The notes: generated by a model from the letters alone, not told the origin. A stretch of DNA of 64,000 nt from an uncultured cyanobacterium (GCA_963710605.1 CAVQBA010000004.1:1024001-1088000); one strand, 5' to 3'. Positions 1 through 21,027 are shown, numbered from the stretch's first letter. A program made the numbers and translations.

Positions 1-150
1 AAAGTTTAGGATTAAAACCCGAAACCGTTGAAAGCTTGGTTGTTTCAACGCTCTGATTAGTGTTTCGTAGATTGAAAGCTAAATGGTTACTATCTCACAA
101 TCGTGATGGTTTAGTTTCAATGCTCTGATTAGTGTTTCGTAGATTGAAAG
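1..150 (+). CRISPR. 3' end of a CRISPR array, type V-K (CAST)-like repeats
   Basis: Two 37-bp repeats GTTTCAA(C/T)GCTCTGATTAGTGTTTCGTAGATTGAAAG at 42-78 and 114-150 (1 mismatch), with a 35-bp spacer at 79-113. The window starts with AAAG (1-4), consistent with the end of a previous repeat followed by a 37-bp spacer (5-41). The GT...TTGAAAG form is typical of Cas12k arrays. Confidence 0.9.
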
Positions 151-243
151 AAACTATTGAAAGCTAAAATTTTCTTCGATACGATCGCTATTCTCAAGTT
201 TCTCAACTATTATTTCTTTAATCTATTAAAATAGATAATGTGA

Positions 244-273
244 GTAAGATTGAAAGGCGCGCCTGTTTTGGGA
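244..273 (+). ncRNA. Delocalized (homing) crRNA: truncated repeat plus 17-nt tRNA-targeting spacer
   Basis: AGATTGAAAG (247-256) equals the last 10 nt of the repeat. It is followed by GCGCGCCTGTTTTGGGA (257-273), 16/17 identical to tRNA-Pro sequence GCGCGCCTGCTTTGGGA (minus strand 466-450), which is preceded by GGTA (GTN PAM). Confidence 0.88.
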
Positions 274-324
274 TTCAAAAATGATTATTGAGCTTATTTT
301 TGTATCTTGTAATGGTACTTTTTT

Positions 325-396
325 AAAGTAGCGACATTATTTGGTTAAACTGCGACAATAATGTGTGAACAACGACACTTAATTATTGAATGTACA
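325..396 (-). mobile_element. Tn7-like (CAST) transposon end, PAM-proximal, with three TnsB-binding-like repeats
   Basis: Minus strand reads TGTACATTCAATAATTAAGTGTCG-TTGTTCACACATTATTGTCG-CAGTTTAACCAAATAATGTCG. It has a terminal TGTACA (396-391) and three TGTCG-ending motifs spaced 20-21 bp apart (CGACA at 332, 353, 373). Confidence 0.85.
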
Positions 397-414
397 TAAG
401 GAGTATAGATGTAA

Positions 415-488
415 TCGGGATGACAGGATTCGAACCTGCGACATCCTGCTCCCAAAGCAGGCGCGCTACCAAGCTGCGCTACATCCCG
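415..488 (-). tRNA. trnP: tRNA-Pro (anticodon UGG)
   Basis: CGGGATGTAGCGCAGCTTGGTAGCGCGCCTGCTTTGGGAGCAGGATGTCGCAGGTTCGAATCCTGTCATCCCGA: 7-bp acceptor stem, anticodon loop TTTGGGA, GTTCGAA T-loop; CCA not encoded. Confidence 0.97.
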
Positions 489-3037: not shown

Positions 3038-3748
3038 TTATTGTATATAAGGAGTTATATCTTCTTGACAATCATCAGCTAAATAAGATAAAGAGCGAAA
3101 CCTTAAGCCAACTAGTTGTTCATAAAGAGGATTTAACTTGCACATGGGGGGAATATGAACAATTTTTTTACCAAAAAGAACGACATCTCTTTCAAAAGGA
3201 CATTGAGAAGGCACCATTTTACAAATAAAACGGGCTAATCGAGGATCTTCAACTTCCATCCCATCCAACCATGTTTTAATCGGTTTAAGGGGTTTTATTT
3301 TGGCTACAGTGCTTTTGTCTTCATTTTGTTGGCTACCGATTTGATTAGATAAAGTTTGAGTTTTATCAACAATTTCAGGATTCCATAGGGTTGATTTTAA
3401 GGACTCTAAAGCTTCTATTTTTAATCCTAAAGCTGACTGAAAATCAGTAACCACATCAGACTCAGCTTGGCTATAAACTCCATTAGAAAGAGCCACCATT
3501 ACCGCTGTACGTAAAAAATTTTCTTTGGTTTTATAATCGTCTCCTAGTGCTTTAGCTAATTCTTCTGCTGAGATAATCTCAAGATTACCTAATTGTGTTT
3601 CAGGGATAAGTTCATCTTGGGTTAGATTATTAATTAATTCTTGTTCTTCTTCGTCAAAATGACCATCAGCGTAAGCAATAGTCAATAAACCTCTTAACCA
3701 TGCAGAAATTTGTTGATCTGTGTATTGATGAATGCTTGGACTTGTCAT
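3038..3748 (-). CDS. TerB-like plus 'Mo-dependent nitrogenase C-terminal' domain protein
   Basis: IAYADGHFDEEE (TerB-like) and CKMVPSQCPFERD...HIPPMCKLNPLYEQLVGLRFRSL. Confidence 0.85.
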   Translation of the reverse strand: MTSPSIHQYTDQQISAWLRGLLTIAYADGHFDEEEQELINNLTQDELIPETQLGNLEIISAEELAKALGDDYKTKENFLRTAVMVALSNGVYSQAESDVVTDFQSALGLKIEALESLKSTLWNPEIVDKTQTLSNQIGSQQNEDKSTVAKIKPLKPIKTWLDGMEVEDPRLARFICKMVPSQCPFERDVVLFGKKIVHIPPMCKLNPLYEQLVGLRFRSLSYLADDCQEDITPYIQ

Positions 3749-18783: not shown

Positions 18784-21027
18784 TTACTTACTAACTAAAG
18801 GTTCGAGTATTTCTCTCTCTTCTCTAGCCAATTTCAATAAGACTCTTCTGTCTCCTTTTGTTTCTTTATATTCCACTGCTGTTTTTAATAAACGTAAAGC
18901 AATTGATAATTCTGGTTTATCTCCTACTATAGATTGCCATGTTTCTAACCAAGTACGAGCTAATTTATCGCTTACCATTTCTGACATCAAGTTAGGAATA
19001 TTATCGACAATTCCTTTACTTAAAGCAGAAATCACTAGGTGTTCATCATAAATTTTGACCAGAGTTTTAAGGCGAGATTTCCAAAGATTAATATCTGTGG
19101 TGCTATTCCAGATAATTTTGATATATTCAGTCGTATCTCCTGTATGGGATTCTTCTTCATGGGCAAAGCGATTTAGGGCATCATCTAATTCTTGAAATCC
19201 TTCTTGCCAATTGTTTAATTGAAATATTGCTTTAATACGGTCGAACCAAACGTAATAATTATCTGGTTGGATTGTGATGACTTGCTCGTAAGAAGTAATT
19301 ACTTCTTGATATCTTTTTAATTCATATAATGTAAGACCAAGATTATACCAAGCATAATAATTACTCGGATTAATTTCTATGGCTGTTTGATAATAAACAA
19401 TTGCTTCGTCATATCTTCTCAATTGATACAATAGAAATCCACAGTTATTAAACACATCATAATTATTTGAGTTGATTTGGATGGCTTTTTGATAAGAGGT
19501 AAATGCTTCGTCATATCTTTTTAAATCAAATAAGCTACAACCACGGTTATTCCAAGATTCAAAGTCATCTGGTTTAATTTTGATTACTTGTTCGTAACAA
19601 GTGATAGCTTCTTCATGTTTTTCTTGTCTATCCAATGCAACACCAAAGTTATACCAAATATTAGGATTACGATCGTCATTTTTAATTGCTTCGTAAAATA
19701 ACTCTGAAGCCTCTTCCCAATTTTCTCCTTTAGCTTGTTGAACAGCCGAAAATATTAAATTATCACTATTTTCTTTAATAGTTAAAACACGATCGATATA
19801 TTCTCTCTCTAAACAATATTCTGGCAATAACTTTAATTTTGCTTTCAACTCTTCTTCTGTGTACCAGCTCCTCAAAAAATCAATCAACAATTTAATTGGT
19901 TCACCTCGTTGCTTTTTCATTTCTAAACATATACGCATTAAAGGCTCTTGTAATTCATAAAAAGATTCTCTACCTAGTGATTCTTTTGTTACGTAACCTT
20001 TAGTTAATAAATCTTTTAACTGACTAGATGCCGTTTGATGGGTAATAAAACAACGCCTAGCAATCTCTTTAACTGATAAACGACCACCTTTATCGCAAAG
20101 CAATTCAATAATTTTTCTTTGTTGCGATGATAACCATTGCATCTTCGCTTGATAATAAGGGGTTAACTCATCTAAAGTTTGCATTACAGATTTAACTAAC
20201 TCGTCTAAAGAATTACGAGTCAAAAATTGGGAAAAAATAATATAAACTCGATGATTACCATTGGTTAAATTATGAATTGCTTGGATACGATCTTTTCCTG
20301 TAGTCGATTTAATAAAAGATTCTAATTCTCTGTCTTCTTGTACTTGAGCTATTTTACTTAATAAATTAGTAGCTTCTTCGATCGTTAATTTATCTAAATA
20401 TTGCGGAGCAAAAAAACCATAAAAAGGAGAATCTTTTTTACTAACTCCTGTAAACAAACTTTGACTGGTTGCAATAATAGTAATAAGGTTGTGATTTTGT
20501 AAATAAGCCCGAAATTGTTTTTGTCCGATATTACCTAAACCATTAAAAATTTCATCGAGGTTTTCGGTTAGTAATAGTAAAGTTCGATCGCTAATAAACT
20601 CTTTAAGTATTTTTTCGGCTTGACTAGTAGCATCTTCTGAAGATAGTTGATATAAAGATTCAACTTCAGTTTGTAACGTCTTTTGGTAATCTTGTGGATA
20701 TTCAATCTCTAAAGCCTTAAATATCCTCAGTAGTAAATCTAACCACGAACTAACTCCCCATTCTTCTTCTTTGAGCCAAGCAATTAATAACTTATCTTGT
20801 AAATCTGTTTGACTTTTAAGGCGGTGATAAGTTAGAGCAATGGTATGAGTTTTGCCAATACCTCTCATGCCAATCAATAAACGAAAATGTTTATTAGCGG
20901 TTTCGGCACTTTCACGAACTGATTCGATTAAATCTGCTACTAATTTATGTCTTTGCACAAATATAGCTTCTAAAGTAGCTGAAGACATCAAGCTGGGGGT
21001 AAAACTGGAAAGAAAGTTGTTATTCAT
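18784..21027 (-). CDS. STAND/AAA-like ATPase with winged HTH, TPR repeats and a C-terminal helical domain
   Basis: Walker A GMRGIGKT, Walker B region LLLLTENLDE, wHTH LSVKEIARRCFITHQTASSQLKDL, ~5 TPRs (WYNFGVAL, WNNRGCSL, WYNLGLTL). Confidence 0.85.
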   Translation of the reverse strand: MNNNFLSSFTPSLMSSATLEAIFVQRHKLVADLIESVRESAETANKHFRLLIGMRGIGKTHTIALTYHRLKSQTDLQDKLLIAWLKEEEWGVSSWLDLLLRIFKALEIEYPQDYQKTLQTEVESLYQLSSEDATSQAEKILKEFISDRTLLLLTENLDEIFNGLGNIGQKQFRAYLQNHNLITIIATSQSLFTGVSKKDSPFYGFFAPQYLDKLTIEEATNLLSKIAQVQEDRELESFIKSTTGKDRIQAIHNLTNGNHRVYIIFSQFLTRNSLDELVKSVMQTLDELTPYYQAKMQWLSSQQRKIIELLCDKGGRLSVKEIARRCFITHQTASSQLKDLLTKGYVTKESLGRESFYELQEPLMRICLEMKKQRGEPIKLLIDFLRSWYTEEELKAKLKLLPEYCLEREYIDRVLTIKENSDNLIFSAVQQAKGENWEEASELFYEAIKNDDRNPNIWYNFGVALDRQEKHEEAITCYEQVIKIKPDDFESWNNRGCSLFDLKRYDEAFTSYQKAIQINSNNYDVFNNCGFLLYQLRRYDEAIVYYQTAIEINPSNYYAWYNLGLTLYELKRYQEVITSYEQVITIQPDNYYVWFDRIKAIFQLNNWQEGFQELDDALNRFAHEEESHTGDTTEYIKIIWNSTTDINLWKSRLKTLVKIYDEHLVISALSKGIVDNIPNLMSEMVSDKLARTWLETWQSIVGDKPELSIALRLLKTAVEYKETKGDRRVLLKLAREEREILEPLVSK

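Follow-up and report, generated by a model that had tools for sequence, protein, structure and literature searches.

Why the last repeats of a CRISPR array should lie beside a tRNA gene, in a region where no cas gene is to be seen, is the question raised by the start of this stretch. The window, by which we mean the whole 64,000-nt stretch of DNA that was analysed, corresponds to G000:C4:1024001-1088000 (window position 1 is C4 1024001), and had been read from its sequence alone as beginning with the end of a CRISPR-associated transposon (CAST) of type V-K, of which the tracrRNA, cas12k, cargo and tnsB/tnsC/tniQ were expected to the left. All of these were indeed found upstream, and in the published order, while the window itself contains no cas or tns gene, as the sequence-only reading had also stated. 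Window 1-396 forms the left end (LE) of a 20,271-bp CAST of type V-K (Cas12k; C4 1004126-1024396), which is arranged, from the LE side to the right end (RE) side, as tRNA, LE, anchor guide, array, tracrRNA, cas12k, divergent regulator, cargo, tniQ-tnsC-tnsB and RE. We consider it very probable that this V-K CAST reached its position downstream of tRNA-Pro(UGG) by homing, and its landing site is accounted for by a short guide that matches the neighbouring tRNA-Pro gene. Upstream features are given below by their positions on locus L001, with positions on contig C4 where these are needed.

The array consists of six repeats of 37 nt and five spacers of 35–37 nt, starts upstream of the window at C4 1023752 (L001 19752) and reads towards the LE. 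Its repeat ends in GAAAG, is identical in five of the six copies, and occurs six times in the genome, always in this one array. The array tail, noticed earlier and read directly from the sequence, occupies window 1-150 (plus strand), and comprises the last 4 nt of repeat 4 (1-4, completing the repeat begun upstream), the 37-nt spacer 4 (5-41), the 37-nt direct repeat 5 (42-78), the 35-nt spacer 5 (79-113) and repeat 6 (114-150), the latter with one mismatch and 72 nt apart from repeat 5. The array spacers gave no significant match in phage or plasmid collections (best E 0.5–0.6), nor a significant one elsewhere in the genome.

Beyond the array, the truncated-repeat guide of the sequence-only reading is present on the plus strand as a truncated repeat (R*, window 240-256), followed by a 17-nt anchor (homing, att-targeting) spacer (257-273). 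Positions 247-256 are identical to the 10 nt with which the array repeat ends. Of the 17 nt at 257-273, 16 are complementary to window 450-466 in the tRNA's anticodon arm, with the similarity ending exactly after nucleotide 17. The protospacer runs on the minus strand from 466 to 450 (tRNA nt 23-39, a segment that contains the anticodon), and is preceded by the 5' PAM TGGTA (471 down to 467), which is of the GTN type and lies 70 nt from the LE terminus. The sole mismatch is at guide nt 10 (T vs C), and gives an rU:dG wobble with the target strand. When up to two mismatches were allowed, the tRNA was the only other place in the 3.93-Mb assembly matching the anchor 17-mer. The attachment site itself is an intact tRNA-Pro(UGG) gene at window 415-488 (minus strand; predicted by ARAGORN, and Rfam RF00005 with 69.6 bits), which had been described as a tRNA pointing its 3' end towards the element; the 3' end does face the element, which lies downstream of the tRNA with its LE terminus 18 bp away.

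The LE terminus (window 328-396, minus strand) was identified before as a TGTACA end with three TnsB-like sites, and consists of the terminal TGTACA (391-396) and three contiguous repeats resembling TnsB sites (369-390, 349-370 and 328-349), each with a GTCG core. The second TGT..ACA end that was to be sought upstream was found as a TGTACA terminus at L001 126 (the RE), and the first 18 nt read inwards are the same at both ends (18/18, TGTACATTCAATAATTAA). The RE has four sites of the same type, two near the terminus and two further in, and each GTCG within the first 260 nt of either end falls in a similar 22-nt site. A stricter first pattern for the TnsB site matched one site, and a position matrix was used instead; this matrix of predicted TnsB sites was built from the same seven sites and is therefore partly circular, with leave-one-out scores of 4.9–15.8 bits. 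It gave no sites of at least 14 bits in the 20-kb interior, and six in 400 kb outside the element. About 400 bp to the left of the RE there is also a dispersed, MITE-like repeat of ~80 nt (L016 627-716, C4 1003627-1003716), with many copies in this genome and in G001 (75–96% identity).

The genes upstream of the window are those of a V-K system. The cas12k gene matches the NCBIfam model V_Cas12k (NF038191) with 873.7 bits (cut-off 150) over profile positions 2-628 of 629, and its open frame of 623 aa aligns with the ShCas12k PDB chains over residues 2-622 (E 7.8e-186). The tnsB, tnsC and tniQ genes, which follow each other in that order starting 235 nt inside the RE, align with ShCAST proteins of solved structure (E 1.8e-156, 5.5e-64 and 1.3e-54, respectively). 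The regulator gene, divergent from cas12k, encodes a 58-aa ribbon-helix-helix protein (RHH_5, 1.2e-18). There are 12 ORFs of at least 100 aa, of which ten were scanned for families, the other two being antisense inside tnsC and nrdA; no TnsA family and no adaptation or interference genes were found in these 10/12 ORFs. Type I or III cas genes, or a lack of Tn7-like genes, would have spoken against the sequence-only reading, and cas12k together with tnsB/tnsC/tniQ is what the upstream region contains instead. The sequence components, their order and the geometry of PAM, guide and distance are seen directly.

Between cas12k and the six-repeat array lie ~590 nt of non-coding DNA, in which we predict a tracrRNA of ~325 nt on the same strand (L001 about 19229-19555). 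An alignment of this region over 11 loci (this one and ten relatives) contains invariant blocks including GCTTTCTG and CCCAG.AA.AAG, and of the 52 pairs predicted in the consensus fold of the 11 loci, 26 show compensatory changes. The motif CTTTC is present as a single copy in the cas12k-array region (L001 19311), and the CTTTC-containing tracrRNA that was to be looked for corresponds to this conserved, structured RNA. A promoter-like TTGACA-18-TACTAT sequence is located at L001 19193-19222, 30–59 nt past the cas12k stop codon, and the tracrRNA start position reported in the relevant part of Ziemann et al. 2023 (PMC9938897) fits this site. The two insertions which lengthen the tracrRNA to ~325 nt were found only here and in G019, the genome with the closest Cas12k.

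The truncated repeat of the homing guide differs from the array repeat in its predicted pairing with this RNA. Window 240-249, the 10 nt upstream of TTGAAAG, can form 9/10 Watson-Crick pairs with tracrRNA positions L001 19542-19551, compared to 5/10 for the array repeat, and the same pairing in G019 amounts to 6/6 for the truncated repeat vs 4/6 for the array repeat. In total 17 nt of the homing repeat are complementary to tracrRNA segments, while 10 nt are identical to the array repeat. In RNA duplex prediction of the repeat against the tracrRNA, shuffled repeats performed as well or better. Better pairing with the tracrRNA may favour loading of the homing guide, a suggestion taken from sequence complementarity in two related elements only.

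Expression, RNA processing and the steps of transposition of this CAST can be proposed by analogy with ShCAST and AnCAST. A short crRNA consisting of the truncated repeat and the 17-nt anchor spacer (window 240-273) would pair with the tracrRNA and be loaded into a presumably nuclease-dead Cas12k, and the complex would recognise the PAM, TGGTA, together with the 17-nt protospacer that lies in the tRNA's anticodon arm. TniQ and TnsC would then be recruited, and TnsB bound to the repeats of both ends would insert the element at a fixed distance downstream, in this case 18 nt beyond the tRNA and 70 nt away from the PAM, with the LE as the end closer to the target and the tRNA left intact. The five full-length array spacers would direct transposition into other mobile DNA.

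Five nucleotides past the array, the sequence ATTGAAAG (window 156-163) is exactly the last 8 nt of the repeat, and together with the following 17-mer (164-180) it forms a possible second truncated unit (window 156-180, plus strand). This 17-mer has one exact, isolated match (17/17) at C4 1327250-1327266, inside an ORF, which is preceded by AAT and not by GTN; an isolated exact match of that sort is found for ~1% of the AT-rich 17-mers of this genome, and a Pfam search with the 47-aa piece of the matched ORF gave nothing. Alternatively, window 157-185 may be a weak promoter-like site (TTGAAA-17-TACGAT, 9/12 match) upstream of the homing guide, with the ATTGAAAG bases making up the -35 box. In G019 there is a ATTGAAAG+N17 unit at the equivalent place, and its 17-mer has no other exact copy in that genome, hence the relatives give no support for a second self-target.

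In the ~13.5 kb of cargo there are an anti-phage gene of the Avs2 type, a 561-aa ORF without a known family, an nrdA-CHAT fusion gene and a gene for a CHAT protein. The Avs2 (AVAST type 2) gene, with an N-terminal caspase domain, is located on the plus strand (L001 3543-8559, C4 1007543-1012559), and an apparent frameshift at profile position 971/973 divides it into two ORFs that overlap. The nrdA-CHAT gene is on the minus strand (L001 10640-14567, C4 1014640-1018567), and its nrdA part is a copy of the host class I ribonucleotide reductase alpha subunit, with 93% protein identity over 665 residues to the paralogue on contig C7 (C7 204287-206515). The nrdA C-terminus is fused to ~540 residues that include a CHAT protease domain, and these residues share 60% identity with the C-terminal portion of the adjoining 772-aa CHAT protein. 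Relative to the C7 paralogue the cargo nrdA has a 1-nt insertion, with the frameshift falling between the ATP-cone and the catalytic domain. In the CAST cargo nrdA-CHAT has Avs2 as its neighbour, and it may represent a defence or decoy module.

The one expectation of the sequence-only reading that failed concerned the flanks. Instead of a 5-bp duplication of window 397-401 (TAAGG), the element is flanked by a perfect direct repeat of 18 bp, TAAGGAGTATAGATGTAA, at window 397-414, with the second copy at L001 108-125 (C4 1004108-1004125), abutting the RE. There are exactly two copies of TAAGGAGTATAGATGTAA in the genome, each flush with a transposon terminus, and the two ends do not adjoin the same 5 bp, with TGTAA next to the RE and TAAGG next to the LE. 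ShCAST gives a 5-bp target-site duplication in E. coli. Such a duplication is a feature of a single simple insertion and not of the V-K family, and it is absent from this CAST; likewise, no matching 5-bp pair was found in the relatives' flanks in seven proposed end pairs (from ten segments), three of which are doubtful, with four mismatches. The 18-bp repeat is the sole feature that current descriptions of V-K CASTs leave unexplained.

Taken separately, the left junction has the look of an insertion with a TGTAA duplication, and the right junction that of an insertion with a TAAGG duplication located 13 bp further out. The reading that we prefer, itself a rather unlikely one, is that two independent homing insertions, of which one would have duplicated TGTAA beside the tRNA and the other TAAGG, took place 13 bp apart in different chromosome copies of a polyploid cyanobacterial cell, and that homologous recombination inside the element joined the LE junction of one to the RE junction of the other. 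The two implied offsets of 5 and 18 nt from the tRNA are both within the 0–20 nt range of the family, and the relevant part of Hsieh & Peters (bioRxiv 10.1101/2021.02.06.429022) holds that V-K elements, which are without TnsA, must rely on host recombination and have polyploid hosts. Rival readings of the repeat are an aberrant stagger of 18 bp, or a remnant of an earlier occupant of the site. If the two-insertion reading were general, natural V-K flanks would be expected to have hybrid junctions (duplications of more than 5 bp, or small deletions) rather than clean 5-bp duplications, and from such junctions one could read how TnsA-less elements become established in their native hosts. The comparison with an empty site, suggested earlier, succeeded in part: tRNA-Pro(UGG) without an adjoining element was read in G004 and in G001 (of the same genus as the genome studied here), but the pre-insertion sequence was not recovered from the relatives. 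The left-flank gene is not beside tRNA-Pro in the relatives, and alignment of the left flank with the DNA that follows tRNA-Pro in G004 and G009 gave no significant similarity, with a score of 47 vs a shuffle mean of 50.6.

The flanking repeat also bears on what kind of element this is, as a perfect 18-bp direct repeat around a tRNA-adjacent island is typical of integrase-driven islands, and one could imagine a tRNA-targeting island moved by a tyrosine or serine recombinase, with the 18-bp repeats as att core and the CAST parts as passengers. We hold this to be very improbable, given that the repeat lies wholly downstream of the tRNA and does not overlap its 3' end, that both copies abut perfect Tn7-type TGTACA termini with putative TnsB sites, that the ten ORFs scanned with Pfam contain no integrase or recombinase family (the 561-aa ORF being without a family), and that the geometry of guide, PAM and distance already explains the position. 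An ordinary defence CRISPR array near a tRNA, with the 17-nt match due to chance or to an accidental self-targeting spacer, would agree with the absence of cas and tns genes inside the window and with spacers lacking identifiable targets, but is refuted by the cas12k and Tns genes upstream and by the guide geometry. The match is exactly 17 nt long, directly follows a truncated repeat, and has the PAM of the family and the family's distance from a Tn7-like terminus; furthermore, adaptation and interference genes are missing from the 10/12 ORFs scanned, and the G019 element has the same design on another tRNA-Pro gene, which leaves such an array with next to no probability. As for a CAST that homed to its tRNA, the absent 5-bp duplication, the split tnsB and the failure to recover the pre-insertion sequence from relatives count against this reading, as does the one mismatch in the guide, though it is a wobble.

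We put the chances at about even that a V-K CAST once homed here and is now a decaying, immobile fossil, with guide and ends as functionless relics. The tnsB gene is in two frames, with L001 361-591 corresponding to ShTnsB residues 36-84 and L001 524-2053 to residues 79-566, and compared to the intact tnsB of G019 it has one extra base (a 1-nt insertion). Together with Avs2 and nrdA-CHAT this makes three frameshifts within 20 kb of assembly, and there is no second V-K-type tnsB in the genome, the best other match being 29% identical. Because gyrA and secA, two long housekeeping genes that were checked, are open, a generally error-ridden assembly is less likely and the frameshifts in tnsB, Avs2 and nrdA-CHAT are probably real; with tnsB frameshifted in the assembly, the balance tips slightly towards a copy that is unable to move by itself. 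Against decay stand the intact cas12k, tnsC, tniQ and regulator genes, the repeats (5/6 identical), the guide (16/17) and the termini (18/18), whereas the break in tnsB is a single base, and comes from an assembly. Moreover, the relevant part of Rybarski et al. (bioRxiv 10.1101/2021.08.16.456562) describes a split TnsB in several V-K CASTs, which is proposed to work as two chains. The control by housekeeping genes is also limited to those two, and rpoB (TIGR02013) was not found in the assembly, which has seven contigs and 3.93 Mb, is 84.9% complete and is missing parts of the chromosome.

Compared to published systems this CAST is one more natural V-K element, with an architecture that has been in print since 2021 (described 2021–2023). 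As with known V-K CASTs, Cas12k, TnsB, TnsC and TniQ are homologous over nearly their full length, no tnsA was found, and the repeats of 37 nt, the spacers of ~35 nt, the 17-nt homing guide and the GTN-type PAM are alike. The gene order is also the same, as the scheme in the part of Ziemann et al. 2023 (PMC9938897) dealing with the LE runs from tRNA, LE, anchor spacer with R*, array, tracrRNA, cas12k and divergent regulator to cargo, tniQ-tnsC-tnsB and RE, and agrees with the earlier placement of the array just inside the PAM-proximal end. The same source gives PAM-to-LE distances of 46–82 nt, which include the 70 nt observed here, and TGGTA is listed as the commonest natural V-K PAM in the corresponding part of Rybarski et al. 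(bioRxiv 10.1101/2021.08.16.456562). Truncated repeat-spacer units of V-K CASTs (delocalized crRNAs, anchor spacers) are credited to Saito et al. 2021 in papers citing that work, and those targeting tRNAs are described in the pertinent section of Hsieh & Peters (bioRxiv 10.1101/2021.02.06.429022) as units with ~13 nt from the 3' end of the repeat, a spacer of 17 nt and a PAM of the GTN type, located at or beyond the end of the array. The unit found here is no different in kind, being a partial repeat with a 17-nt spacer, apart from the array and beside the LE, and matching a tRNA just outside the element, with one wobble mismatch to its target. Differences from known V-K CASTs are the duplication of 18 bp and not 5 bp, the frameshifted tnsB and the target tRNA-Pro(UGG), while the regulator is of the RHH_5 type (the domain is called Arc_2 in the relevant part of Ziemann et al.) and not a MerR-type CvkR.

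The locus adds one further natural V-K CAST with a defined triplet of TGGTA, 17 nt and 70 nt on tRNA-Pro(UGG), and the recognition of its end from non-coding signatures alone means that the layout can be diagnosed from ~400 bp. The 18-bp repeat, the frameshifted tnsB and the better pairing of the homing repeat could inform on the behaviour of TnsA-less elements in native polyploid hosts, although none of these is established.

We also compared the element with those of other genomes. Matches to Cas12k were found in 21/41 genomes searched (this genome counted), of which G019 has the closest (71% identical), and most of the sampled relatives are ~50% identical or less. The sister element in G019 (contig C22, ~15.1 kb) is located at tRNA-Pro(GGG), and has nearly the same repeat, truncated repeat (GTGAGTAAGATTGAAAG), LE and RE termini and tracrRNA insertions. 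Its guide is fitted to tRNA-Pro(GGG), of which it matches the same arm, again at 16/17, whereas the guide described here is directed at tRNA-Pro(UGG), and its LE is 9 nt from the tRNA instead of 18 nt. The G019 element further differs in having an intact tnsB, a cargo of different size and no long flanking repeat. Together the two are a modest example, from nature, of a change of att site between isoacceptor genes.

An exact search with the 18-nt LE terminus, using one genome per species, gave 32 loci, of which the 16 cyanobacterial ones were examined, and the other 16, from unrelated phyla, were set aside unexamined as chance matches of an AT-rich word. A tRNA gene is present 0–20 nt beyond the LE terminus in 9/16 cyanobacterial loci (Ala, Phe three times, Pro, Cys, Lys twice and Thr), with the gaps to tRNA-Phe being 2, 7 and 11 nt in three genomes. 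In the cyanobacterial locus L068 (~3332-3355), the 20-nt flank between the LE and tRNA-Thr holds two more ACTGTACA motifs in tandem, which may be footprints of earlier termini at this site. In G012 a solitary Tn7-like terminus (L025 2153-2230, G012:C53; TGTACA and two repeats of the GTCA/GTCG type) lies 9 bp downstream of tRNA-Pro(UGG) with efp within ~430 bp, and looks like what remains of a different element at this attachment site. Finally, G002 has two CAST copies in opposite orientation (G002:C1, near 999086 and 1522103) with identical Cas12k scores, and the 5 bp beyond the RE of one copy (TGGGG) are found again directly beyond the LE of the other, with the ends assigned by matches with four mismatches; inversion by recombination between the two copies would fit these junctions.
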